NCBI GenBank assembly: GCA_964291315.2
Contig: OZ219750.1
Span: 192,001-256,000 of the forward strand
Reading direction: 5' to 3'
From: Candidatus Poribacteria bacterium
GTDB taxonomy: Bacteria; Poribacteria; WGA-4E; WGA-3G
DNA: 64,000 nucleotides
Every line of letters begins with the position of its first letter. The first letter of the stretch is position 1. A program made the translations under genes and the position numbers. Below, piece by piece: positions 22,089 through 37,460 of this stretch. Under the pieces are notes generated by a model. It was not told the origin of the DNA. It made no database searches and worked only from the letters and a program-made list of their open reading frames with translations.

Positions 22089-23192
22089 TTACCAATCGAC
22101 GACCGAACCGTCATCGGGGTGGTAAGTCACAGGGTTCTGCCAGTCGTGGTCGATTTTGTCTTCAAGGGCATCTTCATCGAGTTCTATACCGAGTCCGGGA
22201 CTGGTGGGGAGTTCGACGAATCCGTCTTTGAAAACGAATGGATTTTTAAGATAGCCCTCACCAAGCGTTGTATGCTCCTGCATCACAAAGTTCGGTATAG
22301 AGGCATCTAATTGGATGCATGCTGCTAAAGAAATAGGGCCCAGTGGATTGTGTGGTGCGATGCCGCCATAATAGGCTTCAGCCATACCTGCGATGATACG
22401 CACTTCATTGATGCCTCCAGCGTGGCAGAGGTCAGGTTGAAGGATAGAGGCAGCCTGCTTCTCTAAAATTTCACGAAACCCCCACTTTGTGAAGATACGT
22501 TCGCCGGTTGCAATGGGAAGATGTGTGCCTCGGGCGATTTCAACGAGAGTGTCCACATTTTGACATTGGATTGGCTCTTCTACAAACATCGGTTGGTACG
22601 GTTCGAGCGCCTTGATTAAGATCTTTGCGGTCTGTGGGCTGATTGCGCCGTGAAAGTCTATCGCGAGGTCAACTTCTGTGCCAGCAGCCTCGCGGAGCGC
22701 AGCGAAGTGATTTACGGCTCTGTCGATAAACGCTTTGTTCTCGATGATACGAGCCGGTCTGCCACCTGCAACGCCTGTTTTGAAAGCCGTGAATCCTTTG
22801 TCGATCCACTCCTTAATGCCCTCTGGATCGCCGCCGCCTTTGTAGAGCCGGATGCGGTCGCGCGTCGGGCCACCGAAGAGCTGATAGACGGGAACACCCA
22901 ACGCCTTCCCTGCAAGATCCCAGAGTGCCTGCTCTATACCGCTTAATGCACTTGTAAGAATCGGCCCTCCGCGGTAGAATGCATGACGATACATCGCTTG
23001 CCAGTGGTGCACAACGCGTCTCGGATCTTGACCGATGAGATAGGGCGCGAGTTCATCAACCGCTTGTGCACATGTCTTTGCACGCCCTTCTAAAATCGGT
23101 TCACCGAGCCCGACTAAGCCCTCGTCCGTATGGACCTTAAGAAAGAGCCAGCGCGGTTGCACCAGAAATGTCTCTAATTTTGTAATCTTCAT
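22089..23192 (-). CDS. dgoD: Galactonate dehydratase (enolase superfamily)
   Basis: MKITKLETFLVQPRWLFLKVHTDEG, FYRGGPILTSALSGIEQALWD, DFHG, APHNPLGP, DGSVVDW C-terminus. Confidence 0.85.
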   Translation of the reverse strand: MKITKLETFLVQPRWLFLKVHTDEGLVGLGEPILEGRAKTCAQAVDELAPYLIGQDPRRVVHHWQAMYRHAFYRGGPILTSALSGIEQALWDLAGKALGVPVYQLFGGPTRDRIRLYKGGGDPEGIKEWIDKGFTAFKTGVAGGRPARIIENKAFIDRAVNHFAALREAAGTEVDLAIDFHGAISPQTAKILIKALEPYQPMFVEEPIQCQNVDTLVEIARGTHLPIATGERIFTKWGFREILEKQAASILQPDLCHAGGINEVRIIAGMAEAYYGGIAPHNPLGPISLAACIQLDASIPNFVMQEHTTLGEGYLKNPFVFKDGFVELPTSPGLGIELDEDALEDKIDHDWQNPVTYHPDDGSVVDW

Positions 23193-23738
23193 AGAGATTC
23201 CTCAAGTGGGTATCGACTTGAAACGGAACGTTCTGTCTATTTTAATACTATGCTACCATTTTTTATGAATTTTTTCAATAATTAAATTGTGGGTGAGTAA
23301 ATGCGTTTGGTTCTCTTGTAGAGTTGTTTGTAGGCGAAAATCATCGGTAGCCTCGAAAAACAGGTTTCAAGTTCAGCACTTATTCTTATACTTGGTTTAT
23401 TGTGTTGACTTAGGCAAGGTAGGAGTGGAATCCTACCGTTATTAATGGTATGGTAATGAATAGGAGGAATTGTGTTTTGTTAAGTTTCTTTTCACATCGG
23501 ATAGCGACAGGTATCTTATTGAGTGTTGGATGTCACTAATTCTCGGATAACGTTAGAAAATCCCATACCTGAAGCCTCGAGAGTGGGTGGCGGCCCTCGT
23601 TCGATCAGATGTCTTATAGCGGCTTTTGTGTGTTAGATACCTATCCTCTACGCAGCGGGCATTTATCGCGCTTCCGTTATTAGGACTCACAGAAAGTAAC
23701 GTCCAAAAATTCAGATATTTTATTTTTTTTAGACAAGT

Positions 23739-23767
23739 TGCACGTTTTCTGTTTAAAAATTCGTCTT
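23739..23767 (+). promoter_or_regulatory. Candidate ECF-type promoter TGCAC-N18-CGTC
   Basis: Same spacing in copy 2 (33196-33222, TGCAC...CGGC), upstream of both ECF genes. Confidence 0.35.
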
Positions 23768-23884
23768 AAATAATATAGGACGATGTCTTTACAAATTGTT
23801 AACTTCCTTCCACAAAACTTCACAGTTGATTAAGCCTGTTATGTGTGCAGGCATAATTCAATGCTTCTATTAGGAGGTAGTTTC

Positions 23885-24469
23885 ATGGAGAGAAAAGACG
23901 ATGCCCAACTGATTAGCAGAACTCTATTGGGTGATGACAAGGCCTTTAGGTTCTTGGTCGATAAGTATTGGAAGCGTATTCACACCCTTGCCTATCGGAA
24001 GATAAATGATTTCCATTATGCGGAGGAGATCGCGCAAGACACTTTCCTTAAGGCACACCAAAAACTTTCGACCCTCAAGGATCCGAATAAATTTTCAGGA
24101 TGGATTCATATTATCGCTGGCCGGCTTTGTACTGATTGGATACGCAAGCAGAATCAGCTGCTAGATCAGAAACTTATGTTACAGGCGCTGCAGGACACAG
24201 GATTGGAAGACGTCGAGAGAGCTTCTTACGCTCATTACATATCGGAACAACGGACAGCAGAGAGATCTGAGTACAACCGTGAGCTTGTAGCGAAACTGTT
24301 GGCAAAACTGCCAGAAGATGAACAGACGGTTGTAACGCTCTATTATCTTGACGAGATGTCAACGAAAGAGATTGCGGAATTCATGGGGGTGTCGGTGAAT
24401 ACAATTACCAGCCGACTCCAACGAGCACGGAAACGCTTACAAACCGATCAGGAATTCTCCGATCATTGA
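23885..24469 (+). pseudogene. ECF sigma-70 factor, truncated paralogue of 33338-35041
   Basis: Regions 2 and 4 intact (AEEIAQDTFLKA; YYLDEMSTKEIAEFMGVSVNTITSRLQRARKRL). The paralogue's TTA CAA codons read TGA TAA here, and homology continues ~50 nt past the stop. It may still act as a stand-alone sigma factor. Confidence 0.7.
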
Positions 24470-24519
24470 TAACTGTCAGATAATCTGAAGGAGTATATTA
24501 ATAAGTCAATTATATCAAC

Positions 24520-24710
24520 GTCAACGTCGCAGCCGAGGCTCTGCGAGGTCATCCGGATCTCGCTATAGATGCCGAAATGTTGTGAGTGAAACCTTAACAG
24601 AGCGTTCGATAGGGAAAGACATCCAAGAACCCGAAGAGTTGGTAGGATGGTTGCGAACCGTCGCAAAAAACCTGATGCTCGATAGCATAAGCGTCTGGAA
24701 AAGATGAACG
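24520..24710 (+). pseudogene. Fragment of a second, unrelated ECF sigma factor (region 2)
   Basis: Frame at 24618 reads DIQEPEELVGWLRTVAKNLMLD, preceded by a broken 'DAE...RAF' segment. Confidence 0.55.
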
Positions 24711-25065
24711 AGCCCCCTATCAACTCGAACGCTTGACAACTTTTCTTGTATCAGTCAGTGATGATGGATAATAAAATCTGATGATTAACTTTTGATGTTC
24801 ACATGACAGAATTTCAGACGAGAGCTAATATTGCTGGGATATTTGATGCGTACTTTCAAGGTTTTCTCCTTATGAAGTTCTGTCGTTTTAGACGAGATGC
24901 TGTTATATTTGATAGTTTCTGGAGACTGTCTCCCAAGTTAGATGCCTGTTGTGAAACAATTAGGTTGTTAGCATCTTATACAAAATACAGAGGATTGCCA
25001 AATAATGCAATACCTTTGTGAGCTTACTTTCAGACAGCAATTTCTAAAAAATTAAGGAGAACGTT

Positions 25066-25416
25066 ATGTTTTTACAGCAAACGATGGGTCCTTGGTTCGC
25101 CATTCAACGGGCGAGTCAAGTTATAATGATTTTATTGGCAGTTGCGATGTTAGTTTTACCGCTCTTAACACAACCCGAAGAAGCAGAGGCCATAGGTCCT
25201 GTAGGGATCTGTATTATGAGCGGATGCTTTATTATAGTCGCAGCGATAGCAGGTGCTTGTGCACGCCATATACTCAAGGCCTGCAATAACTGTGGGGAAT
25301 GGGGGGTAGGGAACTCTCACCGACACGTCTGCCTACCTGGATGTGGCTACAATTTTTGGTCTTGTGTTCTGGATTACGGCGTATCCGAAGCTTGGCTGCA
25401 TGCCTGCTGTTCTTAA
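25066..25416 (+). CDS. Small secreted Cys-rich protein (116 aa)
   Basis: AAGGAG RBS; signal peptide ending EEAEA; 10 Cys in the mature part; hairpin terminator follows. Confidence 0.75.
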   Translation: MFLQQTMGPWFAIQRASQVIMILLAVAMLVLPLLTQPEEAEAIGPVGICIMSGCFIIVAAIAGACARHILKACNNCGEWGVGNSHRHVCLPGCGYNFWSCVLDYGVSEAWLHACCS

Positions 25417-25426
25417 ATCGCCGCTG

Positions 25427-25460
25427 TGAGAGGCGGAGAGTTTTTATCTGCCTCTCTTCT
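25427..25460 (+). terminator. Intrinsic terminator-like hairpin
   Basis: GAGAGGCGGA-loop-TCTGCCTCTC followed by TTCTT. Confidence 0.55.
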
Positions 25461-25517
25461 TACTCAACAGGAGGGAAATAACTTTCCTTACATGTCCTTC
25501 GGAAGGAGACAATCTCT

Positions 25518-25817
25518 ATGAAAGAAACAAAATCCCTCGGAAAAAGACTTGTTGCGGAGCATCGAGCAAAAGTACGGCGAGACATCAAACAATACGTACT
25601 TGCAGCACTTGTTGGAACTGTCGTCGGACTGAGTATCGGGTTTACCGTGAGTGATTTCTGGTCATTACTCATAGATAGGTGCTCCGCTTGTGGTGAACTC
25701 GGTTCAGAAAAAGAGCACAAGGAATTAGGTAGTCTTGTAGCTCCCAATTATTATGTGTGTCAACCGCGGCCTCCGATATATAGACCCGCACCCCCGAGCC
25801 CTTATCTTGACAGATAA
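25518..25817 (+). CDS. Small membrane-anchored CxxC/His protein (99 aa), copy 1
   Basis: AAGGAG RBS; TM helix; CSACG...H...NYYVC; Pro-rich tail. Differs from copy 2 by 5 synonymous and 2 non-synonymous changes. Confidence 0.75.
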   Translation: MKETKSLGKRLVAEHRAKVRRDIKQYVLAALVGTVVGLSIGFTVSDFWSLLIDRCSACGELGSEKEHKELGSLVAPNYYVCQPRPPIYRPAPPSPYLDR

Positions 25818-25905
25818 ACCTAACTTTTTGAGTGCAACTCAGGGAGATCCCCTCTAACTGAGGTATTCAGACTTATGCCAAGCCGTATAAAGATTGTTAC
25901 AGCAT
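25518..25905 (+). repeat. Near-identical direct repeat (copy 2 at 30350-30737)
   Basis: ~388 bp with 9 differences counted by eye; includes the first 10 codons of the next gene. Confidence 0.95.
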
Positions 25906-26552
25906 TGGGAATCCTTGTAATTCTAACGTTTGTTGGGCATTTTTTCATCACACAAAAAGTTGTAAAACCAGAGGTTCTTACAATTTACAAGGTTACACCG
26001 ATAGAGCTAAGGGGGGAGTCACACGGCGTTGATCCAAGGTCCAAGCCTCCCCTGGAAAAACAGGTTCCCCATTTCCCGTCTGTCTCCAGCGACCCTTTTC
26101 ATATTCATAAAACGCAGTCCTCTAAGAATATCCTTCACGATGAATTTGAAATCACATCCCACTTTGAGCAGAGACAGGCATTTCCCAAAGATACAGAATC
26201 TGCCGCTGACACAGTCCTTGCAGATGAAGATGTCAATTCGTCAGAGCATATCCACAGAAATATTGAAATGTTAAGTGCACAGATTGAAGACGAATTTTCC
26301 GATCTCATTTCCTTTTCACAGATGACCCGTGCCGAAATAACAGCGTTGCCGTATGAGGAAAGAGAAAGAATTAGGGAACTCTCTAACCAATTTATGGAAA
26401 AGTATATGAAAGAAATTCGTGAGTCTTTTTTGCTTTTGCCCCCCGATCATTTGGAAGGTATCCTCTCGGTTCTTCAGGAAGCATACAGAGAACAGTGGGG
26501 AAATGAATATGCTGATAAAGTTATAGCAGAATTACGTAACCAGCTCAAATGA
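25875..26552 (+). CDS. Hypothetical N-terminally anchored protein (225 aa)
   Basis: N-terminal TM helix, low-complexity linker, helical C-terminal domain; ATGA overlap with next gene. Confidence 0.75.
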   Translation: MPSRIKIVTALGILVILTFVGHFFITQKVVKPEVLTIYKVTPIELRGESHGVDPRSKPPLEKQVPHFPSVSSDPFHIHKTQSSKNILHDEFEITSHFEQRQAFPKDTESAADTVLADEDVNSSEHIHRNIEMLSAQIEDEFSDLISFSQMTRAEITALPYEERERIRELSNQFMEKYMKEIRESFLLLPPDHLEGILSVLQEAYREQWGNEYADKVIAELRNQLK

Positions 26553-28294
26553 TATGGTATCCACATATAAAACATTTTAGAACCAGTTCGACTAGTTTAC
26601 ACTACGTTTTTTTTCTCTGCATTTTTGTGATTGCAGCTGTGCCTCGCTTGTTATCTCTAGAGTCCCACTGGTCCAGTGATGAAGCGCGGTGGCTCAACCG
26701 AAGCGAAACGTTCATGTCCGCTGTTAAACACGGTGAGTTCTCTGAAACCTTCATTACGCACCACCCCGGTGTCATAACAATGTGGCTTGCGGGGCTCCGT
26801 ACCTTTTTTGCATCCGCTAACTTGGATGTGCGCAACCTCGCGCGGGCTCGTTTTTTTATAGGCATTGTTGTCTGGATAGGGATCGGTGCGGCCTGTCTTG
26901 CTCTATGCCGGCTTTTCGGACAGTGGATAGCCCTTGCTAGTTTCGTTTGTCTCGCGTTATCTCCGCTCTTTTTGGCGCAGACGCGTCGTGTTCACACGGA
27001 TGCCCTTGCCACTATTTTTATTTTGCTCACGATGTTGCTGTTTCTACTCTATTGTCAAAACCGGCACCGACACCGTTATATTGTCTTTTCAGGTATCACC
27101 TATGGGCTCGCTCTAATTGCTAAAAGTTACGCCCTCATTCTCGTACCATGGATACCGATGTGTTTATTTTTATTTCCAGATCCGTCCAAGTCCTCGTGGA
27201 ATAAGAAAAACCTCATTGTCCTTCTCTGCTTCGCGAGTTCTGCCGTTCTCTCGGTATTAATAGTGTGGCCCATTTTCTGGGCCCCTTCTTTCGCCATCCT
27301 GATTGCATGTTTATTAGGCAGCATCACATCAATGTTAAAGGTCCTCAAATCGGAAAAAACGGACCTAAAAAGCCTCCCCTTTTTTGCAGGGGCTATAGTT
27401 TTGTGTGCTGTGAGCATACGCACCCTACAAACCTTATGGGACGTTTTTGATAAAGTGGGATGGGCTGTCAGAACACCCCACGAGGTAGATCATTTCTTTT
27501 TGGGGAAGGTTGTGGATGATCCCGGTTGGCTTTTCTATCCATTTGTACTTATGATCAAAAGTACACCGCTAATGCTACCCTTGGCACTTGTCGGATGCGT
27601 CCTACTTTGGAAACAACGACAGTCCGAGAAGACGATCCGACAGCTTCGGATAGCACTTGCACTCGTTGCGGGCGTTATGCTTTTCACATTGTGCCTCTCA
27701 ATCACGAGCAAAAAGTTCAGTCGCTACCTCTTACCCGCCTTTGCGATGTTAGAGATACTCGCTGCGATCGGATTTGTAGAGGGGCTCAAATCGAGTTACG
27801 CTGCACTACGTTCCCGTTTTGGTACCGCGGTAGCTGCGAAATACAAGACAGTACTTGCTGTTATTGCCTGCTCTGTTTTCTGTTTTATTCAGGTTTTCCC
27901 CGTGATGTCGCTTCATCCGTATTACGGCACTTACTATAACCTCTGTTGGAAAGTGACCGACATTACCAAGTTTATCACGGTGGGGGAAGCCTCTGGGTTA
28001 GATATCGCAGCGAAATATCTGAACAAAACAGAATTGGAAAGACCCTTGCGCGTACAAGTCTCTCCATTATCGGCTCAATTTTTTATTCGCTATTTTAATG
28101 GATTGGTCAGAACTCCTGACAGAACAGGCGGCCCCGACCCAGATTATGAAGTCGTCTACATTCGAGACTCACAGATAGGACTGGTTCCGCAGTCCGGTAA
28201 CCTCAATGGTGAACTGGAAGCCGTCATCACTCTCAACGGCATTGACCATGTTTGGATTTACCGTATCCTGCCCCCCGAGGAAGTCCTCGATTGA
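26549..28294 (+). CDS. GT-C fold glycosyltransferase (GT39/ArnT/PMT-like)
   Basis: 'SDE' after TM1, HHPG, 'SPLFLAQTRRVHTDAL', 'ALIAKSYA', 'KKFSRYLLPA'; many TM helices. Confidence 0.85.
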   Translation: MIWYPHIKHFRTSSTSLHYVFFLCIFVIAAVPRLLSLESHWSSDEARWLNRSETFMSAVKHGEFSETFITHHPGVITMWLAGLRTFFASANLDVRNLARARFFIGIVVWIGIGAACLALCRLFGQWIALASFVCLALSPLFLAQTRRVHTDALATIFILLTMLLFLLYCQNRHRHRYIVFSGITYGLALIAKSYALILVPWIPMCLFLFPDPSKSSWNKKNLIVLLCFASSAVLSVLIVWPIFWAPSFAILIACLLGSITSMLKVLKSEKTDLKSLPFFAGAIVLCAVSIRTLQTLWDVFDKVGWAVRTPHEVDHFFLGKVVDDPGWLFYPFVLMIKSTPLMLPLALVGCVLLWKQRQSEKTIRQLRIALALVAGVMLFTLCLSITSKKFSRYLLPAFAMLEILAAIGFVEGLKSSYAALRSRFGTAVAAKYKTVLAVIACSVFCFIQVFPVMSLHPYYGTYYNLCWKVTDITKFITVGEASGLDIAAKYLNKTELERPLRVQVSPLSAQFFIRYFNGLVRTPDRTGGPDPDYEVVYIRDSQIGLVPQSGNLNGELEAVITLNGIDHVWIYRILPPEEVLD

Positions 28295-29244
28295 TACCGA
28301 AAATAAGGCAGCTTGCAGGCTACTTGGTTGCTGGGTTACTCTTGTGTTTTCTCATTAAACCCTTTGTGCAAACACAGACAACTCTAAAATATACCTCATT
28401 TCAGTTACATTGGCATTGGCTCATTCCGGCCTTTGGTCTCCATATCCTTTACAGGATCTACTATACCGTCCCGTTCGCAACTTTGCTGCGCTGTCTGATG
28501 CAAAAACCGGTCTCTTTTCGGGATGCCTTTACGCTTTTCCATCTTGCCAACATCACGCGTTATCTTCCCGGTCGGATCTGGGGCGTTGTGAGACTGTTGT
28601 CTTTAAGCGAACAGTTCAGGTTGAGCAAAACTGCAGTCGGCAGTAGCCTGACGCTACACGTTGGCGTGGAGACCGCACTCGGTGGACTGATTGCGCTGTC
28701 CCTGCTGTTTTCAAAACAGATGCAAGACACCGCAACACAAGTGCTTGATTCGTTTTCAGGACAGACAGTGTTTTTGATGGTCGCCGGAATAGGACTCATG
28801 ATGGGCATCCTGTTTTGCATCCCGAAACTTGCAGCCCGCGCCGGGCAGTTTCTAAAAAAATGCTCACTCCTTCTGAAAAATACTCTCCTATGGAGGATCG
28901 TGCTAACTAGCCACATCGGTCTCTGGATATGTCAGGGGCTCGCTTTTTTCTTATTCGTCCGAAGTTTCGCGCTTGTGCGCTGGGCGGATGTGTGGGGTCT
29001 TGCAGCTTGTTTTGCGTTTGCATGGATTATCGGTTTCTTCAGTTTTCTCACACCCGGGGGCTTAGGGGTCCGAGAGGGATTGTTAGGGTTGCTGTTGGCA
29101 AATTATCTGCCGACCTATCAGGCAACGCTTGTCGCTTTGCTCTGTCGTCTCTGCATGTTATCTGCCGAGGTTCTCTTGGCCGGCACGGCTTGGGGACTTC
29201 ACAAGCGACGTTATAAAAGAAACAATCAGGGGCAGGATTTCTGA
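28291..29244 (+). CDS. Lysylphosphatidylglycerol-synthase TM / flippase-like domain protein
   Basis: 'RYLPGRIWG', 'TPGGLGVREG', 'VALLCRL'; TTG start overlaps the GT stop. Confidence 0.85.
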   Translation: MIPKIRQLAGYLVAGLLLCFLIKPFVQTQTTLKYTSFQLHWHWLIPAFGLHILYRIYYTVPFATLLRCLMQKPVSFRDAFTLFHLANITRYLPGRIWGVVRLLSLSEQFRLSKTAVGSSLTLHVGVETALGGLIALSLLFSKQMQDTATQVLDSFSGQTVFLMVAGIGLMMGILFCIPKLAARAGQFLKKCSLLLKNTLLWRIVLTSHIGLWICQGLAFFLFVRSFALVRWADVWGLAACFAFAWIIGFFSFLTPGGLGVREGLLGLLLANYLPTYQATLVALLCRLCMLSAEVLLAGTAWGLHKRRYKRNNQGQDF

Positions 29245-29463
29245 TGGGTGCCGAGGTAATACAGAAAACATCTTTATATCAAATGGGTTCTCCTTTTGAA
29301 CCAAACGTTCGGGAGGAAGGAGACTTCTATAGACCCGTCAGTTATCAATACATCCTAACGTTCCAACCTTTCATTCGTTTGAGCAGTTTTTTCTAGGTAG
29401 ATTTATCTCTACGACCACACTCCCCTGTGATGCGTGTGTGAATTAAAATCAGATTGATTTTGC

Positions 29464-29492
29464 TTGACCTATTTTTCAAAACCGGTTAGATT
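29464..29492 (+). promoter_or_regulatory. Sigma70-like promoter
   Basis: TTGACC-N17-TAGATT, followed by a GATACACCT...AGGTGTATC hairpin at ~29514-29546. Confidence 0.45.
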
Positions 29493-29639
29493 GGTTATGA
29501 AATGCTGCAATCGGATACACCTGGGATTAGAAAACCGAGGTGTATCATTATTTTAGAAAAACTCGGAAAAAGTTTGGGACAGATTAGGGCGAGGCTTTCA
29601 TAAAACTGGCCCTCACAGACAAAGAGAAGGAAACTTGCT

Positions 29640-30191
29640 GTGTCAGGAAACCAATTCCCTGTTGACCGTTTTAAGAAAATCTACAAATTTTATTTCCTCA
29701 GGAAAATCATAGTCCAAGCCGTTCTTTACGCGTTCGGATTTACGGGGCATCTATTAACGAGTTTGATTATGGCAGGAACAATACAACTGGATCCTGATTC
29801 CAGTATCGGCAGGCTTCTCAGAAGTTGGATGCGCGAGTCTATCATCGTTTTTGGTTCAACAGTATCTGGCGGTTTATTTACCTTCGGCGCGATCTGTGCA
29901 GGCATTTTTTCTGTAGGGGCATTATCTCTTGGTATTATCGCAATAGGGGCATTATCTCTTGGTGTTATTGCTATGGGTGCTATGCCTCTTGGTGTTATTG
30001 CAATTGGTCCGGTTTCTGTTGGTATTATTGCTATTGGGGAGTGCCCCTATGGTCTCTATACCTTATCTATCACAGGAAAGGGCAAAGGCAAATATGTCTT
30101 CACCCCGGAGCGCCAAGATACCCGAGCAGTAGCCCTGTTTACACGCTTGCTTCCAAAGTTCAAGACGTTGTTTGTTGAGACAAAATCTTAG
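29640..30191 (+). CDS. Membrane protein with Gly-periodic hydrophobic repeats
   Basis: GIFSVGALSLGIIAIGALSLGVIAMGAMPLGVIAIGPVSVGIIAIG (Gly every 5 residues). Confidence 0.7.
   Translation: MSGNQFPVDRFKKIYKFYFLRKIIVQAVLYAFGFTGHLLTSLIMAGTIQLDPDSSIGRLLRSWMRESIIVFGSTVSGGLFTFGAICAGIFSVGALSLGIIAIGALSLGVIAMGAMPLGVIAIGPVSVGIIAIGECPYGLYTLSITGKGKGKYVFTPERQDTRAVALFTRLLPKFKTLFVETKS
29917..30039 (+). repeat. 30-bp coding tandem repeat (~4 units)
   Basis: GGGGCATTATCTCTTGGTATTATCGCAATA / GGGGCATTATCTCTTGGTGTTATTGCTATG / two more diverged units. Confidence 0.8.
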
Positions 30192-30349
30192 TGTTACTCC
30201 TTTTTTCTATATCTGTTCTATAAAGTAATTCGTTATAGTACGTATATGTGAGGTAGACGGTTTTTATTTCCCTATCTTCTTCTCCAACACGAGAGAAATA
30301 ACTTTCCTTACATGTTTTTTGTAAGTGGATAACTGAGGAGACAAGCTAT

Positions 30350-30649
30350 ATGAAAGAAACAAAATCCCTCGGAAAAAGACTTGTTGCGGAGCATCGAGCA
30401 AAAGTACGGCGAGACATCAAACAATACGTCCTTGCAGCACTTGTTAGAACTGTCGTCGGACTGAGTATCGGGTTCACCGTGAGCGATTTCTGGTCATTAC
30501 TCATAGACAAGTGTTCCGCTTGTGGTGAACTCGGTTCAGAAAAAGAGCACAAGGAATTAGGTAGTCTTGTAGCTCCCAATTATTATGTGTGTCAACCGCG
30601 GCCTCCGATATATAGACCCGCACCCCCGAGCCCTTATCTTGACAGATAA
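30350..30649 (+). CDS. Small membrane-anchored CxxC/His protein (99 aa), copy 2
   Basis: 97/99 aa identical to 25518-25817; GAGGAG RBS. Confidence 0.75.
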   Translation: MKETKSLGKRLVAEHRAKVRRDIKQYVLAALVRTVVGLSIGFTVSDFWSLLIDKCSACGELGSEKEHKELGSLVAPNYYVCQPRPPIYRPAPPSPYLDR

Positions 30650-30869
30650 ACCTAACTTTTTGAGTGCAACTCAGGGAGATCCCCTCTAACTGAGGTATTC
30701 AGGCTTATGTCAAGCCGTATAAAGATTGTTACAGCATGGCACAAATATAGGTATATGTGATGTGACAACTTGGTGGAGTTCCCTCCAAAATTTCATCCGG
30801 ATCGCGTTGTAGAAAACATTTAGTATGTTAATTCGCCAGAATTTAATTACATACGTGGGCAAGGAAACC

Positions 30870-31862
30870 ATGAAATTTAAACATTTACATCTATTGATTT
30901 TGTTAGGCATCAGTTTTGGGACACTATGTGCAAGCAGCCGCCTTACATCGGCTAAAGCTCCTGAAACGCCTAAAATTACGTTCGTATCGCACAAACAAAC
31001 GGATATCTATATTATGAACCCTGACGGAAGTGATAAGCTCAACCTAACCCGGCACGTTTCGCGTAATAGTGACCCTGTATGGTCCCCGGACGGAGAGCAC
31101 ATCCTATTCAGTTCCGATCGACGTGATCGCGTCTGGGATCTCTTTTTAATGGATGCAAGTGGCGAGAATATACAAAAAGTCTTCAAAGACACAGCAGTCA
31201 GAAGAAACCCTACCTGGTCCCCTAATGGGCGAAGGATTGCTTATTGGCGAGAAAACGAACAGGCCATCTACACTGCGACTATAAATGGAGCGGAAGAACA
31301 ACGCTTAGCACCTACTGGAGAAGACGGCGGCTATCCTAAGTGGTCCCCAAACGGCGTAGAGATAGCCTATATTTTTCACCGAAAAGCACCGGTAGGGACT
31401 CAGGAAATTCGTATCGTCAACTTACAAACTAATGTTCAGCGGACGTTTCTTCCGGAAAAACCATTACTGATGTATGCAGTTGCTTGGTCGCCAAGGGGAG
31501 ACGAACTCGCTTTTCACTGGATTAATTTGGATATATGGAAGAATCCAGCATTGCTTTTGGGTGGTTTCTGGCCCAAGTCTGCTATCTACATTGCTCGTCA
31601 CGACGGTAGCGATTTACGGAAAATTGTTTCAGGTCCTGGTCTAAGTTTAAGAACGCTGGCCTGGTCTCCCGACGCGGCGGAACTTCTTTATACCAGAACA
31701 GGACAACTCTTCAAAATCAATTTGAACACGCGATCAGAGATACAGCTCACAGCTAATGAGGGCATCAGCTCTAGTGCAGATTGGTTTGATCCTGAGGCGT
31801 TGTCTGTTCAGCTTCAAGCGGAATTGTTAACAACACTTTGGGGCGGAATCAAACAGCAATAG
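30870..31862 (+). CDS. Secreted TolB-like (PD40 repeat) beta-propeller protein
   Basis: Signal peptide; repeated P.WSPDG/WSPNG; C-terminal SVQLQAELLTTLWGGIKQQ; ATG 30870 follows AAGGA. Confidence 0.88.
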   Translation: MKFKHLHLLILLGISFGTLCASSRLTSAKAPETPKITFVSHKQTDIYIMNPDGSDKLNLTRHVSRNSDPVWSPDGEHILFSSDRRDRVWDLFLMDASGENIQKVFKDTAVRRNPTWSPNGRRIAYWRENEQAIYTATINGAEEQRLAPTGEDGGYPKWSPNGVEIAYIFHRKAPVGTQEIRIVNLQTNVQRTFLPEKPLLMYAVAWSPRGDELAFHWINLDIWKNPALLLGGFWPKSAIYIARHDGSDLRKIVSGPGLSLRTLAWSPDAAELLYTRTGQLFKINLNTRSEIQLTANEGISSSADWFDPEALSVQLQAELLTTLWGGIKQQ

Positions 31863-32141
31863 TATGCTTTTATGGAGACATCACCGGCGAGGCATCTGGT
31901 TTTATTTTTAATGGAGCCAATGAACGATCTTGGACCTCTCGTCGGTTTTAATGCGGGGCATCATATACCACAAAAAGAGTTATCAAGATTTCCACCTCTT
32001 TTGTATGTGTGTTTTGATAGTATATGAGCACAATGGTTGCAATCACTGTGATAACTAGCATACGATTCAGTTCAAATACAGTAACGGTTGGGAAAGTTAA
32101 CGAGCAGCGAAAGATCGTTATAGTGTTTGTAAGCATCCGTA

Positions 32142-32720
32142 TTATCTCCATTGTTCTGTTGAGTTGTTCTTTACCCCACATAACTCTTCAATTGCGTTAG
32201 TACCTGCTTTAAAGTTGGGATATGTAGACAACATCTCGCTGAAGGTATCCAAGTCTTCAGGGGCATCATTGAGTTGAATCAATTTCCGCAAGGCTTGCAG
32301 AAAGACAGGAAGCTCTCTTGTGAGCTCTACCGCATCCGCCTCAAACTCCATCCGATGCCAGACGCATCAGACCAAACTGCACAAAGAAAGCCATCACACC
32401 CACCAACACAAGCCAATACAGCTACAGCGGGATACCCGGGAAAACCTAAAAGAAACATATTCAGACGTGCCAACAACAAGTGACCGAACAATACAAGCAA
32501 CCTGCTTGAGCAGATGCCGATGCTTCAGATGGCCTAACTCATGCGCGAAAATCACCACTATCTCGTCTGAACGCAGATGATCCAACAGATAATCTGTCAC
32601 AAATACCGAATGCCACTGCGGGACAATACCGGTAACCTAGGCATTCGCCAACTTGTGGTTTCTGGTTTGTAGTCTAGTGATATTTCGGTAATCTATGTCT
32701 GCTTTTTCTGCAGGTTGGTA
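32142..32720 (-). pseudogene. M48 (HtpX/Ste24-type) metallopeptidase remnant
   Basis: ANA*VTGIVPQWHSVFVTDYLLDHLRSDEIVVIFAHELGHLKHRH (in-frame TAG), then frameshifted EFEADA...LQALRKL...STYP. Confidence 0.8.
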
Positions 32721-32730
32721 CAGTCATTTG

Positions 32731-32880
32731 CTGAGTGTGCTATATTTGCTGCCGCATTCTCCGGGTCTCAATCCGATTGAACACGCCTTCGGGAATATAA
32801 AGAGACATTGGCAATACAATCATAATCAAACTGTGGAAGATATGATACCGATGTATAAATAATTAAGGAATACACTATGT
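32731..32880 (+). mobile_element. IS630-family transposase C-terminal remnant
   Basis: LYLLPHSPGLNPIEHAFGNIK matches the IS630 LPPYSPDLNPIE motif; stop at 32862 followed by a probable right end. Confidence 0.75.
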
Positions 32881-32884
32881 GAGA

Positions 32885-33971
32885 GGAATTCTACAGTTAT
32901 TAATGGTATGGTAATGAATAGGAGGAATTGTGTTTTATTACGTTTCTTTTCACATCGGATAGCGCCTCGTATCTTATTGAGTGTTGGATGTCACCAATGC
33001 TCGGATAACGTTAGAAATCTCATACCTGAAGTCTTGAGGGTGGGCGGCGGCCCTCGTTCGATCAGATGTCTTATGGCGGCTTTTGTGTATTGAATACCTA
33101 TTCTCTACGCAGCAGGCATTTATCGGGCCTCCGTTATCGGGGATCACAGAAAATAACGTTCAAAAATTCAGATATTTTATTTTTTTAGACCGGAATGCAC
33201 GTTTTCTGCTTAAAACTTCGGCTTTAATAATAAAGGGTAAGAGCTTTACAAACGCTTAATTTTCATAAGGTTGCACGGTTGATTAAACCCAATACGAGTG
33301 CATGCATAATTTAATTCTTCTATTAGGAGGTAGTTTCGTGGAGAGAGAAGACGATGTTCAATTGATCTGCAGAACTCTATCGGGGGATGAGGCTGCGTTT
33401 GGTCTCTTGATCGAGAAGTATCGAAAACGTATTCACGCCCTTGCCTATCGGAAGATAAACGATTTCCACTATGCGGAAGAGATCGTGCAAGACAGCTTCC
33501 TTACGGCATACCAAAAACTGCCGACCCTCAAGGATCCGAGTAAATTTTCAGGGTGGATTCATACTATCGCCAATTGGCTTTGTATTGATTGGATACGAAA
33601 ACAGAATCGGCTGTCAGAGCAAAAACTTACGATACAGTCGCTAGAGGACACATGCATGGAAGAAATTGAGGAATCTTCTTATGCCGATTATATATCGGAA
33701 CGGCAGATAGCAGAGGAATCTGAGTATTGCTATCAACTTGTAGAGAAACTATTGGAAAAATTACCAGAAAAAGAACGGACGGTTGTAACGCTCTATTATC
33801 TTGACGAGATGTCAACGAAAGAGATTGGAAAATTCCTGGGGGTGTCGGTGAATACAATTACAAGCCGACTCCAACGAGCACGGAAACGCTTACAAAACGA
33901 TCAGGAGTTCTTCGGTCATTTACAACTATCAGATAATCTGAGGGAGGATATTATGAGTCAATTAGATCAAC
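32885..33971 (+). repeat. Diverged duplication, copy 2 (upstream element plus ECF sigma domain)
   Basis: Colinear with 23427-24519. Confidence 0.9.
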
Positions 33972-35041
33972 TTCGCAACACGTTCGATTCATTCATCGGA
34001 CAAGTAAAGACTGATCCCGCATCAAGAGAGGATATTCTTAAAGAGGCAGGCAAACAGATTGAAGGTGCACTTGAGGGTGAAATCACACCGGATTTGGTTC
34101 ATTTTGCTGTAGATGATATATACCCGTATATGGGCAAACTGGGAATGGAAAACAGCCTATCTCTACTCCATAAGTATATGAACGGTGTTTTAGATGATAA
34201 GGAGCGTTTTTGGACGCATAACAATTTAGTCAACACCCTTGCTTATCTTGGCAAAGATAGGGAGTCTATTGAGGAGCAGCTGCGCCTTTATTGTTGGGCA
34301 TGCAAGCAGTCAGAAAGATATGTGTTACGGGTTGTGTGCAACCTGAGCAATGCTGGTTGTTGGGCGGCGGAAGCTCGTGTTGATGATTGGATTCAAATTT
34401 ATGAGAAGGCTTCTGAACGTTTAGAGAGTCCTGAAGTGAGTCAGTACAGCCGTTGCGATTTTCTGCAAATCGGAGCAGAGATATTGCGAAGGAACGACCG
34501 GATAGACGCGGCGCTTCTCGAAATAGAAAAGTTAGAACGTGCTAATGGTGAGCCTGGTTGGAGGTCTTATTTTAGATTCTGGTTGGCTGTGAGAACGAAT
34601 CGACTTCTGTTGTATAGCAAGCACGAAGATCGGTTCCGTTTCGATCAAGTTTGGATGGACACAAGGACGTTTATCGAAGGGGAAGTACAAAAACGGAATG
34701 CTGGTTATCCGGTAAATGTTTCCGACCTTGTTTGGGCTGCTCACAATGTTGGCTGTTGTCTGGTATGGACGAAAAAGTATAGCGAAGCGAAACGTATGCT
34801 ACAAATCGCTGTCGATTTGGAAAATGACAATCACTATGGTTACTTCCAGCTTGCTGTGAGCATCTGGGCATCTGAGAAAGATCGAGAGAGAACCCTACAC
34901 TACTTAAAGGTGGCTCAGGACACTTATGTGGTTAGTTCCTATAATTATCGGGATTCGTACTATCCGTTTTTCCTTGAGACCACTGAATTTTCGGATGTAA
35001 AAGATGATCCAGAATTCCTGAGGGCCCTGGGACAGAAGTAA
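33338..35041 (+). CDS. ECF sigma-70 factor fused to a C-terminal helical/TPR-like domain
   Basis: AGGAGG RBS before GTG; sigma regions 2 and 4; TPR-like helices (HNVGCCLVWTKKYSEAKRMLQIAV) ending in FSDVKDDPEF. Confidence 0.88.
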   Translation: MEREDDVQLICRTLSGDEAAFGLLIEKYRKRIHALAYRKINDFHYAEEIVQDSFLTAYQKLPTLKDPSKFSGWIHTIANWLCIDWIRKQNRLSEQKLTIQSLEDTCMEEIEESSYADYISERQIAEESEYCYQLVEKLLEKLPEKERTVVTLYYLDEMSTKEIGKFLGVSVNTITSRLQRARKRLQNDQEFFGHLQLSDNLREDIMSQLDQLRNTFDSFIGQVKTDPASREDILKEAGKQIEGALEGEITPDLVHFAVDDIYPYMGKLGMENSLSLLHKYMNGVLDDKERFWTHNNLVNTLAYLGKDRESIEEQLRLYCWACKQSERYVLRVVCNLSNAGCWAAEARVDDWIQIYEKASERLESPEVSQYSRCDFLQIGAEILRRNDRIDAALLEIEKLERANGEPGWRSYFRFWLAVRTNRLLLYSKHEDRFRFDQVWMDTRTFIEGEVQKRNAGYPVNVSDLVWAAHNVGCCLVWTKKYSEAKRMLQIAVDLENDNHYGYFQLAVSIWASEKDRERTLHYLKVAQDTYVVSSYNYRDSYYPFFLETTEFSDVKDDPEFLRALGQK

Positions 35042-35084
35042 GTTGTGCTAATTCAGGTAATTGTAGCGTGATCTTGATAGAAAT

Positions 35085-35429
35085 TTAGGTTTTAGGGCTG
35101 CAGGGTCCTGTATGTCCGTGAGGCGCTCCCATCTGAAAAGTCGCGATGCGCTTGTTATCACCGCCGCGCCCTCTGGGGGCATCCACAAAGGAGATACCAA
35201 TACCTGCACTGAGCCTTGCAGAGAGGTTCTCTAACAATTCCAAGACTTCTTGTTGCAACCGTACAAAACGGGAATAACTCAGAAGTTCTAGAAATGCCGC
35301 AGCCCAATAGACCCAGACGTGCCGAAGATAGAAGTACTTAAATGTGCTATACCCGCTTTGATGGAAGGCGATGAGTATTGTCAGCGCCTCGCTCGGATGT
35401 AGTCTCCGCGGCCGCGCCTTTCTGAACAT
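35085..35429 (-). mobile_element. IS982-family transposase remnant
   Basis: RPRRLHPSEALTILIAFHQSGYSTFKYFY...LLSYSRFV...GISFVD...NKRI matches the IS982 N-terminal half; truncated. Confidence 0.8.
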
Positions 35430-35568
35430 ATGAGAAAACTCTTTTTCCGAAAAGTACAAGAGTATTATTATATCAAAAAGTTTCTCTTTAGACAAAGAAA
35501 ACACGAAGCTATTTATCAAGCTCACATTATTGTAAGTGGTTTTATCCAAAAAATAAAAGGGGCATTCT

Positions 35569-35856
35569 ATGTACCTTAACTATAGTATGTCACAACAAAC
35601 TGCCAACGTCATCGCATGTTGTATTCTTATCGTTGGTATTGCAGGTTGCTTCCTTTTAGACATGTATATAGGTCGTTGCAGGGGGCCATGCGGAAGACTC
35701 AGCATCAAAACGGCTCACGAAAGAGAGTGTAGGGCTGGACACAATTACTACTCATGTGCCCCTCCGGATCAAGTGCGACAACATGTGAACTGTTCACCGT
35801 GGCAGGATGACTTGGGAGGAAACAGCATTCTTAAACCGCCCATTAATGACAGATAG
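35569..35856 (+). CDS. Small membrane-anchored Cys/His protein (95 aa)
   Basis: TM helix then CRGPCG...H...C..GHNYYSC...H..C; similar to ORFs at 25066 and 25518. Confidence 0.7.
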   Translation: MYLNYSMSQQTANVIACCILIVGIAGCFLLDMYIGRCRGPCGRLSIKTAHERECRAGHNYYSCAPPDQVRQHVNCSPWQDDLGGNSILKPPINDR

Positions 35857-35862
35857 TCAGTC

Positions 35863-36072
35863 GAATACACGCTGTTTCAACGCTTCAAAAGGCTCACGCA
35901 AGGCGTGACGACGTTGTTAATCTCCCATAGGTTCTCTACGGTGCGCATGGCTGACCGGATACTCGTCTTGGAGAACGGGACCATTATCGAGGAAGGCAGC
36001 CACGAAGAACTCATGAACAAAGCAGGGCGATACGCCACATTATATCGACTGCAATCTGAAAAATACCAATAA
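35863..36072 (+). pseudogene. C-terminal fragment of an ABC exporter ATPase
   Basis: Manual translation [69 protein letters not shown]; no Walker A/B part upstream. Confidence 0.85.
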
Positions 36073-36194
36073 CAGGCGTTTGAAAACGTTTCCTATCGAA
36101 CGGACGCATGCGGCTCTTTTCTGTCTTTGTCTGCTGCGGTGTACAATAGGACCGACGCCGGGTTTCCAGCGTCTCCCCTTAACAGAGCGTGCTT

Positions 36195-37460
36195 ATGAAA
36201 CTGCGTGATGTTTGCATGAGCGGGGTGAAGCCCCTTTGGCAAAATAAACTCCGTTCCGGTTTGTCCATCCTCGGGATTGCCATCGGCATTGCGAGTGTGC
36301 TCTGCATGGTGGCTATCGGCGAGGGTGGCAAACGTATCATTGCGGACAACCTTGAAAAAATGGGCGGGGCCAACCAGATCGCCTTCTGGACCCGGATGAC
36401 GATTTGGAAGGGACCGCGGCTCGCCCGGCGGACGACGGAACGCTATACACTTCAAGACGCTGCTGCCATCGAGGCAGCTTGCCCCGAGGTGCTATATGTT
36501 TTGCCGAAAGTAGAAACCTTCCGTCTCTTTGTGAGCAGCCGAAACGGGAGTCAAGCGATCACGCGCTTAGAAGGTGTCACCGCGGACTACGCTACCGGGA
36601 TGGGGTGGGACGTTCACGCGGGCCGGTTCTTCTCCGATGGCGATATAGAAGCGCGCAAGCAGGTGTGCGTCTTGGGCAGCAACATCGCCCGTGAGCTGTT
36701 TGCGAACACATCGCCCCTCGGCCAAGAGGTGAAGGTTCGGTATCAGCGACTGCACTCACCGCTCCGGCTGCGCGTTATCGGAGTGATGGCAGCAAAAGGC
36801 AGCAGCCTCAGCGACTCGTATTCTTTAGATGATGCGATTTCCATGCCCGTGACGACCTATCAACAACGCGTCAAAGGATCTCGCCACGTGGACTACTTGA
36901 TCGTCTTTTTTCGAAAAGACGCAGAGAGCCAAGTGGTGATCGATTCGGTAAAAAACACGCTGCGGAAAAGACACCGAGGCAAAGACGATTTTATCGGCGT
37001 TTGGATGGCGACACTGACGGCTCACCGACTCTTCCACATTCAAAAAGTGATAACATTCACCTTGGGCAGCATCGCGGGGTTCTCGCTATTCGTCAGCGGT
37101 ATTGGGATCATGAATATCTGTCTCGTCTCTGTCGCGGAAAAGACGAGACAGATCGGTTTACGGAAAGCAGTAGGGGCGAAACGGATAGACATCTTCTATC
37201 AGTTCTTGGCGGAATCGATCGGACTCTGCCTCTGTGGCGGGCTGCCCGGCATCGGCGGCGGGTGGGCTGCAGCACACGGAATGACATGGATTGCCACGCG
37301 GATTCTGCCCGTTGTGGAGACGTGGCCCGTTGCGGTCTCCGTGCCGTGGATACTGACAACGGTTCTTTTCTTATTTCTCCTGGGGATAGGTTTCGGGGTC
37401 TATCCCGCAACGCAGGCAGCACAGATATCACCTATGGAGGCCCTCAGTACCGAGAATTAA
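36195..37460 (+). CDS. MacB/FtsX-family ABC transporter permease
   Basis: NKLRSGLSILGIAIGIASV; GIGIMNICLVSVAEKTRQIGLRKAVGAK; GVYPATQAAQISPMEAL. Confidence 0.92.
   Translation: MKLRDVCMSGVKPLWQNKLRSGLSILGIAIGIASVLCMVAIGEGGKRIIADNLEKMGGANQIAFWTRMTIWKGPRLARRTTERYTLQDAAAIEAACPEVLYVLPKVETFRLFVSSRNGSQAITRLEGVTADYATGMGWDVHAGRFFSDGDIEARKQVCVLGSNIARELFANTSPLGQEVKVRYQRLHSPLRLRVIGVMAAKGSSLSDSYSLDDAISMPVTTYQQRVKGSRHVDYLIVFFRKDAESQVVIDSVKNTLRKRHRGKDDFIGVWMATLTAHRLFHIQKVITFTLGSIAGFSLFVSGIGIMNICLVSVAEKTRQIGLRKAVGAKRIDIFYQFLAESIGLCLCGGLPGIGGGWAAAHGMTWIATRILPVVETWPVAVSVPWILTTVLFLFLLGIGFGVYPATQAAQISPMEALSTEN

Follow-up and report, generated by a model that had tools for sequence, protein, structure and literature searches.

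In the stretch of DNA analyzed here (64,000 nucleotides (nt) of contig OZ219750.1, Candidatus Poribacteria bacterium, assembly GCA_964291315.2; hereafter, the window), four small open reading frames (ORFs), A, B, B' and C, encode a hydrophobic helix followed by a cluster of cysteines and histidines, and are located near genes for extracytoplasmic function (ECF) sigma factors. The locus raises the question of whether such proteins act as anti-sigma factors or metal sensors for the neighboring ECF factors or as secreted effectors, as the original prediction had suggested, or have a different role. The four ORFs are real genes for small membrane-anchored proteins. In the reading that we consider probable, A and C carry an undescribed metal-binding display module (the Cys/His module), and the small proteins are products of a gene cassette rather than its anti-sigma factors.

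Four small genes and their Cys/His module

All window coordinates are positions in the 64,000-nt stretch, position 1 being its first letter. The four genes, their modules and the duplicated segment are:

25066–25416, + strand: A, 116 amino acids (aa); conserved N-terminal region, two hydrophobic segments, one full module
25276–25413, + strand: module of A (residues 71–116)
25518–25817, + strand: B, 99 aa; basic N-terminus, one transmembrane (TM) helix, degenerate module, Pro-rich tail, C-terminus ...LDR
25674–25760, + strand: module of B (residues 53–81), 4 of 8 ligand positions kept
30247–30737, + strand: segmental duplicate of 25427–25905, containing B' and the first 31 nt of a copy of the gene p225
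30350–30649, + strand: B', 99 aa, inside the segmental duplicate
35569–35856, + strand: C, 95 aa; one TM helix, one full module, C-terminus ...INDR
35671–35793, + strand: module of C (residues 35–75)

The four ORFs were found on the + strand with the peptides originally quoted, and in each a hydrophobic helix stands before the motif. The region is rearranged, with a pseudogenized sigma gene, a truncated p225 copy, a fragment resembling an insertion sequence (IS) and a fragment of an ABC-type ATPase gene; no RNA run is listed among five sequencing runs (two studies) that contain the sequence, and the ORFs might simply be open by chance in DNA that is intergenic or decaying. This explanation is opposed by the AGGAG- or AAGGGG-type ribosome-binding site found 6–9 nt 5' of every one of them, by relatives at the protein level in other genomes, which keep the ligand positions at identities down to 44%, and by the excess of synonymous changes between B and B'. 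The blastn alignment of 25427–25905 with 30247–30737 (479 and 491 nt, respectively) has 92% identity over 491 columns, including one 12-nt indel. Within it the p225 copy stops after 17 codons, and a recount of the B and B' ORFs agrees with the earlier one: seven differences, five of them synonymous and two non-synonymous (G33R, R54K). The rarity of the motif is a further argument. A loose form of it, C-x2-3-C-G-x5-9-H-x6-13-[YFW][YWF]-x-C, was scanned against the six-frame stop-to-stop ORFs of at least 40 aa from the whole 4.4-Mb genome (n = 53,628), and only five matched: A, B, B', C and one A paralogue on another contig. With so few matches, the motif is not a chance pattern. It begins 4–10 residues after the predicted TM helix in A, B, B' and C. 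We regard the chance-frame explanation as very improbable, close to excluded.

A profile of the four ORFs retrieved seven further small paralogues and one 1292-aa protein from the same genome. The small paralogues are:

A2, 127 aa, contig-4 locus (L020): A-type paralogue
B2, 99 aa, contig-4 locus: B-type paralogue
E1 and E2, 153 and 152 aa, contig-4 locus: extended motif
B3, 97 aa, contig-4 locus: B-type paralogue
D, 88 aa, contig 3: paralogue of C, with no sigma gene nearby
a degenerate family member of 124 aa

The B, C and E types end in a tripeptide [ILVN]-[DN]-R directly before the stop codon (25806–25817 in B, 30638–30649 in B', 35845–35856 in C; 5272–5283, 10442–10453, 11171–11182 and 11503–11514 in L020). 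Since the codons of the [DN]-R end vary synonymously (GAC/GAT, AGA/AGG, TAA/TAG), the constraint acts on the peptide. By our own reasoning, a PDZ-type or tail-specific protease is a candidate reader of this end.

According to phmmer with single sequences, A, B and C are not significantly linked: A gave no match to C, and B and C found each other reciprocally at low rank (E 0.06–0.15). C matched the 1292-aa repeat protein (E 7e-21) and its paralogue D (E 8e-8). When hhalign was used to compare the A-types with a core module profile built without them, the match was clear (probability 96.8%, E 2.9e-10). In addition, a natural fusion protein, P0090 (225 aa), consists of a helix, a C-type module, two helices and a B-type module ending in DDR. 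Based on profile comparisons and not on single sequences, the homology of A and C can be accepted with confidence, while B and B' are rated only as probable relatives with a degenerate, reduced module.

The module is about 40 residues long and has eight conserved Cys/His positions. Ligands were counted in 206 unique module instances from 106 proteins, aligned to the profile; the instances are not phylogenetically independent.

L1: C in 180 of 180 non-gap instances
L2: C in 181 of 181 non-gap instances
L3: H in 193 of 196 non-gap instances
L4: C 186, G 9, H 4
L5: H 162
L6: C in 202 of 203 non-gap instances
L7: H in 154 of 156 non-gap instances
L8: H 80, C 14, R 5; gapped in 107

In at least 98% of non-gap cells, L1, L2 and L6 are Cys and L3 and L7 are His. 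The Cys/His share of all 206 instances, gaps included, is 75–98% for seven columns and 46% for L8; among non-gap cells it is 92–99.5%, except for L5 (about 79%). Besides the ligands, a Tyr and a Tyr/Trp before L6 and a Gly before L5 are conserved. Cys and His are interchanged at L4, L5 and L8, and a compensating shift occurs at L5, where a Cys stands two residues earlier in 25 of the 44 His-less copies vs. 5 of the 162 His-bearing ones. The module of C has an odd number of cysteines, five. Because of the swaps at three positions and the five cysteines of C, metal ligands are favored over disulfide partners. Conservation of Cys/His with tolerated interchange is the pattern of a zinc-binding mini-domain, and, judging from the aligned sequences, the module of A and C is very probably metal-binding. 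Eight ligands would suffice for two tetrahedral metal sites, with zinc as the most likely metal. B and B' keep L1, L2, L3 and L6, a set that would suffice for a single site; in the B-types, which fall into two separate subfamilies, the other four positions are lost together.

Predicted fold of the module and its wider family

Pfam search with A, B, B' and C returned 0 families at E ≤ 0.01, and no family above cut-off was found for the four ORFs together with six relatives, nor for the 1292-aa protein, p225 or a 183-aa protein of the window. Likewise, NCBIfam gave no match for the small proteins, the 1292-aa protein, p225 or the 183-aa protein, and a protein atlas search with C and the relative P0038 gave no usable match. 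AlphaFold2 produced a confident compact model of a canonical copy (42 aa, alignment of 61 rows; mean predicted local distance difference test (pLDDT) 92.3), with a short helix (residues 7–10), a hairpin (19–21/27–29) and a second helix (33–39). The model of the soluble part of C is weaker (pLDDT 61 overall, 70–76 in the module); it has a comparable order of hairpin then helix, with an extra N-terminal hairpin in place of the canonical short helix. As predicted, the module begins with a knuckle, continues with a beta-hairpin and closes with a short helix. The earlier description as a zinc-finger or disulfide mini-domain matching no named domain agrees with the missing Pfam and NCBIfam matches, the Cys/His interchange and the model with pLDDT 92.

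Comparison of both models with 48,161 PDB chains by VIA-align gave 0 hits at Z ≥ 2, and Foldseek gave no row at E ≤ 0.001 for either model (best E 3.4, with a template modeling score of 0.39 over 23 columns). A PDB sequence-profile search returned weak rows of C2H2 arrays and a TRAF-type finger, with scores of 6–10 bits per finger. The first half of the module, C-x2-C-G-x7-H-x3-C, aligns weakly with C2H2 and TRAF-type C2HC fingers; the best row is 2i13 (E 5e-5 as the sum of six fingers scoring 6–9 bits each), and 2d9k reaches E 0.2. The C2H2 finger is a beta-beta-alpha unit, and the modeled module is also predicted to have a hairpin followed by a helix. However, the module has eight ligands rather than four, no single-finger or structural match is significant, and the module proteins are bacterial and membrane-anchored or secreted. 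Cross-braced two-zinc domains of the RING type are similar in having eight Cys/His within about 40 residues, and RING domains make up most of the weak Foldseek rows; nevertheless, the Foldseek match is insignificant and the ligand spacing of the module differs.

The 1292-aa protein has a signal peptide and 14 tandem copies of the module (defined by a regular expression), which are separated by Pro-rich linkers and follow the pattern C..C..(A)H-x3-C-xAGH-xY[WY]xCN-x6-H-x2-H. Its gene (contig 3, 304000–312000; locus L018, 92–7650) is flanked on each side by two full copies of a gene for a 234-aa protein, and a 153-aa ORF nearby repeats the C-terminal part of one copy. The 234-aa proteins have an N-terminal membrane helix and a coiled-coil-like C-terminus, and are not related to p225 by BLASTP (E 0.15).

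A word-indexed search beyond the genome yielded 34 proteins with E ≤ 0.01; all of them lack both a name and a Pfam domain. Relatives of A in metagenome proteins have 44–75% identity (75% in P0007), those of C include P0010 (79% over the aligned columns) and P0081 (68%), and the B relatives elsewhere include 178-aa proteins. The module profile (40 positions), compared with 1,835,955,588 representative sequences, matched 85 at E ≤ 1e-3 and 32 at E ≤ 1e-10, most of the 85 being proteins of 350–1000 aa with 2–8 module copies near the C-terminus. No Pfam family was found at E ≤ 1e-3 in 43 of the 47 longer module proteins scanned; the exceptions are P0036 (described below), P0112 (LRR and Big_1), P0049 (Arylsulfotran_N) and a 2504-aa protein with F-box and other domains.

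Some of the larger proteins have additional features. P0036 (L099, 5349–6392) and P0040 start with a weak Peptidase_M15/MepK-like region containing HVHA[DQ]W (Pfam E 2e-4, sub-threshold, Peptidase_M15_3 in P0036; NCBIfam E 0.003), which may point to repeats that target a cell-wall hydrolase. Viral contigs scanned with P0036 gave no match, and the gene context of the M15-like module protein in genome G163 was not informative. In P0038, P0039, P0040, P0046 and P0052, the canonical copies come after another kind of Cys/His repeat, roughly ACGH-x-Y...H-x4-CP-x3-G-x2-C-x-(G)SYY-x-C-x2-H-x-H-x-Y.

The genome collection lists three related loci under the title Candidatus or uncultured Poribacteria. 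Within the phylum with loci of this title, the module is, as far as seen, limited essentially to a single family: it was scored in at least 55 of 176 species genomes of the phylum, namely in at least 53 of 111 in the family of the window, at least 1 of 29 in a second family and none of 35 in the other nine, counts that may be too low, as the first pass scored at most 42 candidates per genome. The full-text literature search, in the portions of text available to it, returned no description of such proteins in Poribacteria.

The cassette and its sigma genes

The features surrounding the four small genes are:

23843–24469, + strand: ECF sigma factor, 208 aa (Pfam Sigma70_r2/r4_2/ECF)
24549–24746, + strand: pseudogene remnant of the cognate sigma of the cassette (sigma2-sigma4-sigma4'), with an in-frame stop
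24952–25065, + strand: promoter-like region and 5' leader of A, about 110 nt
25875–26552, + strand: p225, 225 aa; N-terminal TM helix and helical C-terminal domain, no known family
26549–28294, + strand: GT-C glycosyltransferase of PMT_2/ArnT type, 581 aa (Pfam PMT_2, E 1.6e-12)
28252–29244, + strand: LPG_synthase_TM-type membrane protein, 330 aa (PF03706, E 5e-14)
29640–30191, + strand: Gly/Ile-rich membrane protein, 183 aa, no Pfam or NCBIfam match
33302–35041, + strand: ECF sigma factor (Pfam), 579 aa, with a 370-residue C-terminal extension
35085–35549, − strand: IS-like ORF fragment between the 579-aa sigma gene and C, no Pfam match

The genes A, B and p225 are the front of a partly decayed paralogous cassette, a fuller copy of which is located on contig 4. 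There the order is sigma, A2, B2, a p225 homologue (E 7e-9), PMT_2 (split), GT2 (a second glycosyltransferase), LPG_synthase_TM, E1, E2 and B3, and it is paralleled in the window by A, B, p225, PMT_2 and LPG_synthase_TM, with no GT2 gene. The PMT_2 gene is intact in the window and split into frames of 137 and 459 aa on contig 4 (L020, 6030–7819); each cassette has thus lost a different part. The order of A, a second module gene and p225 recurs in both cassettes of the genome. At nine A-type loci of other genomes, p225 follows in six, a sigma gene or fragment precedes in three, and the three glycosylation-type genes follow in one. The only Pfam row of p225 is CSTF_C over 26 residues (24.1 bits, cut-off 24.3), which was taken as chance.

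According to tblastn, the product of 23843–24469 matches residues 2–217 of the 579-aa sigma factor with 72% identity and lacks the C-terminal extension. As a truncated paralogue it corresponds to the N-terminal part of that protein, with the upstream region co-duplicated, and it is not the sigma of the cassette itself. No second copy of the extension was found in the genome. The remnant at 24549–24746 shares 51% identity, with a stop, with residues 63–123 of the sigma of the paralogous cassette. At the nucleotide level (blastn), L020 3630–3831 corresponds to window 24549–24746 (78%) and L020 4266–4686 to window 24755–25167 (80%), with about 430 bp missing at the remnant relative to the contig-4 cassette. 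Since the intact sigma beside A is a truncated copy of the 579-aa one and the cognate sigma is a remnant, the adjacency of A to an intact sigma gene is secondary.

Members of the cassette sigma family are about 265 aa long and have an extra C-terminal domain with a sigma-4-like helix-turn-helix (sigma2-sigma4-sigma4'); family loci include L081, L086, L088, L092, L095 and L096. At 19 cassette-sigma loci of other genomes, a module gene was found within 1.5 kb downstream in only one; at the rest, the downstream genes encode different small exported proteins or nothing that could be recognized. The contig-4 sigma is split into overlapping frames of 204 and 85 aa (L020, 3466–4080 and 4035–4292), a split that could stem from a frameshift or from misassembly.

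On the side of C, the IS-like fragment, which we take to be transposase-like, has relatives at about four other places of the genome (seven tblastn segments). Directly after C follows a 55-aa C-terminal fragment of an ABC-type ATPase (35905–36072), and then an intact 423-aa permease-like gene (36189–37460). This arrangement suggests that the segment with C and the IS-like fragment disrupted an ABC transporter operon.

The leader of A consists of −35/−10-like boxes, an invariant AGAGGATTGC, a variable part of 35–45 nt, a GCAAT(C/T)C arm and the ribosome-binding site. It occurs in four copies in the genome, only 5' of A, A2, E1 and E2 (the contig-4 copies lie at about L020 4470–4584, 9870–9991 and 10600–10723). 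The leader was found in 17 of 112 genomes of the family, and in the 16 other than this genome it precedes unrelated small exported proteins rich in Cys, His and Tyr. A possible stem of 7 pairs showed 0 compensatory changes, so an RNA structure is unsupported, and Rfam gave no match at E ≤ 1 for 23000–36500. As a mark of the cassette-sigma regulon the leader was rejected, its strict core being absent from the 19 sigma loci and the nine A-type loci of other genomes.

Anti-sigma factors, exported peptides or envelope modules

If the small proteins were anti-sigma factors, they would use the Cys/His module to tether an ECF sigma to the membrane and would let it go upon a change of metal or redox state. 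Zinc-binding anti-sigma (ZAS) domains (Pfam zf-HC2) are found in the ECF anti-sigma factors RsrA, ChrR and RslA; such a domain is an N-terminal cytoplasmic helical domain of about 80–90 residues that stands before the membrane helix and has the motif spacing H-x3-C-x2-C, with one more ligand upstream. Cys/His ligands and a position beside ECF sigma genes are shared by the module genes, and the exact H-x3-C-x2-C spacing is present in the E-type paralogues alone, which are encoded on another contig. In each of the genome's two cassettes, the A-type gene comes directly 3' of a sigma gene or its remnant, as it does at 3 of the 9 loci elsewhere, two of which have sigma fragments only. Judged by the positive-inside rule, the Lys/Arg (K/R) counts would assign a cytoplasmic position to the modules of the A- and C-types. 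Small zinc-finger anti-sigma factors also exist, for example CsfB (Gin) of Bacillus subtilis, which, in the part of its description available (PMC5890618), is likewise very small, zinc-dependent and active on sigma factors.

Several points nevertheless speak against this role, and the proposal that the four proteins act on the neighboring ECF factors could not be upheld. The segment N-terminal to the helix, with 18 residues in A and 13–26 in B and C, is too short for a known anti-sigma domain, and the module is instead a hairpin-and-helix unit of about 40 residues, as predicted, C-terminal to the membrane helix and not an N-terminal four-helix domain. The H-x3-C-x2-C spacing is missing from all four proteins of the window: the corresponding part reads H-x3-C-x3-C in A and H-x3-C-x3-H in C, and in B no Cys follows the His. 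There is also no match to zf-HC2 or another Pfam family. CsfB differs as well, being, according to the same partial source, soluble, cytoplasmic and linked to sporulation, whereas the module proteins are membrane-anchored; its chain is not among the 22 PDB sequences matched by the module profile at E ≤ 10. In the window A and B are intact while their cognate sigma is a pseudogene, and C is separated from the 579-aa sigma gene by the IS-like fragment. The intact cassette sigmas have a sigma-4-like C-terminal domain of their own, are present in 53 of 112 genomes of the family vs. 11 of 112 for the A-type, and have a module gene directly downstream at just one of the 19 loci. Furthermore, the module is repeated 14 times in a protein with a signal peptide and occurs in other secreted repeat proteins. 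Co-folding of the cassette sigma (204 aa, 9 rows) with A2 (127 aa, 16 rows) scored 0.00 twice; having no controls, it gives no evidence either way. On balance, we find an anti-sigma function unlikely.

Similarly doubtful is a role as metal-free, disulfide-knotted exported peptides, akin to precursors of bacteriocins or of ribosomally synthesized and post-translationally modified peptides and possibly glycosylated by the neighboring transferases. In this case the conserved N-terminus of the A-types would be a leader and the Cys-rich part a core. In the A-types, conservation is indeed much higher over the first ~45 residues than in the Cys-rich part, the genes are small and variable, occur in duplicate and have often decayed, export is likely for the B and E types, and glycosyltransferase genes belong to the same cassette. 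However, the swaps between Cys and His at L4, L5 and L8, together with the compensating shift at L5, suit metal ligands and not disulfide partners, four His that are invariant or nearly so would lack an explanation, and the module is also present inside proteins of 350–1292 aa. In addition, the Pfam scan of the cassette ORFs recognized no maturase, peptidase-transporter or immunity gene, and GT2 appears from its sequence to resemble a polyprenyl-phosphate sugar synthase with membrane helices.

We prefer to regard the module as a structural binding unit, likely carried by membrane-anchored and secreted proteins of the envelope. It would be a metal-stabilized unit for binding at the membrane or the cell surface and not an enzyme, with large signal-peptide proteins carrying tandem arrays of up to 14 copies. 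The small proteins would be products of an envelope cassette, sigma(sigma2-sigma4-sigma4')–A–B/E–p225–GT-C–GT2–LPG_synthase_TM, and not its anti-sigma factors. The genes, the module, its distribution and ligand pattern, the synteny and the decay of the cognate sigma are observations, and the metal, the membrane side and the binding role are inferred from them. With regard to the side, the segment before the helix is basic in B, E, P0090 and P0110, and the 1292-aa protein and P0037 start with signal peptides; the modules of these and of the repeat proteins are predicted to be outside, and the charge pattern of P0090 puts both of its modules on the outer side. In the A-types, a signal-like segment at the N-terminus is followed by an acidic loop, a second helix and then a more basic flank; in C and its closest relatives, the N-tail is uncharged and the flank behind the helix is basic.

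A number of observations weigh against this preferred reading. The topology is not uniform, given the K/R counts of the A- and C-types mentioned above. In a leave-out hidden Markov model (HMM) built without any A-type, with E-values scaled to the 53,628 ORFs of the genome, A was recovered at E 0.27, A2 at 0.005, B2 and B3 at 0.1–0.3, and B and B' weakly, at about 20. The hhalign comparison of the B-types with the core module is also weak (36% probability, P 3.8e-4), with the correct register; the original grouping of all four ORFs in one family thus holds for A and C, while the link to B and B' is suggestive. The short repeats in P0058, P0088 and P0095 keep L4–L7, which differs from the B-type set. 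As A-type genes are rare in the family (the 11 of 112 genomes given above) and several copies are interrupted by stops, these genes are dispensable. Finally, for a model of only 42 residues, the absence of PDB neighbors is weak evidence of a new fold.

A bolder interpretation, which we consider a distinctly unlikely extension, is that the module is a new extracytoplasmic fold with two zinc ions. The surface arrays of up to 14 copies (28 sites) would serve in adhesion or metal capture, and the single membrane-tethered copies, A, B, C and E, would inform the cassette sigma about zinc or the redox state in the periplasm and thereby switch on glycosylation. The non-canonical ECF sigma (sigma2-sigma4-sigma4') would then act without a classical anti-sigma factor, its target being an ArnT-like envelope glycosylation cassette.

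For annotation, the locus demonstrates that adjacency to an ECF sigma gene together with richness in Cys and His does not make an anti-sigma factor; in the window this adjacency is misleading, since it was produced by duplication and pseudogenization. The Cys/His module is covered by no curated library and, with its confident model without a solved neighbor, is a candidate for a new Pfam family and a small target for structural and metal-binding studies. Should it bind zinc in an extracytoplasmic location, the few extracellular zinc-finger-like repeats of bacteria would gain a new member, and the module would offer a handle on the surface proteins of an uncultured lineage.

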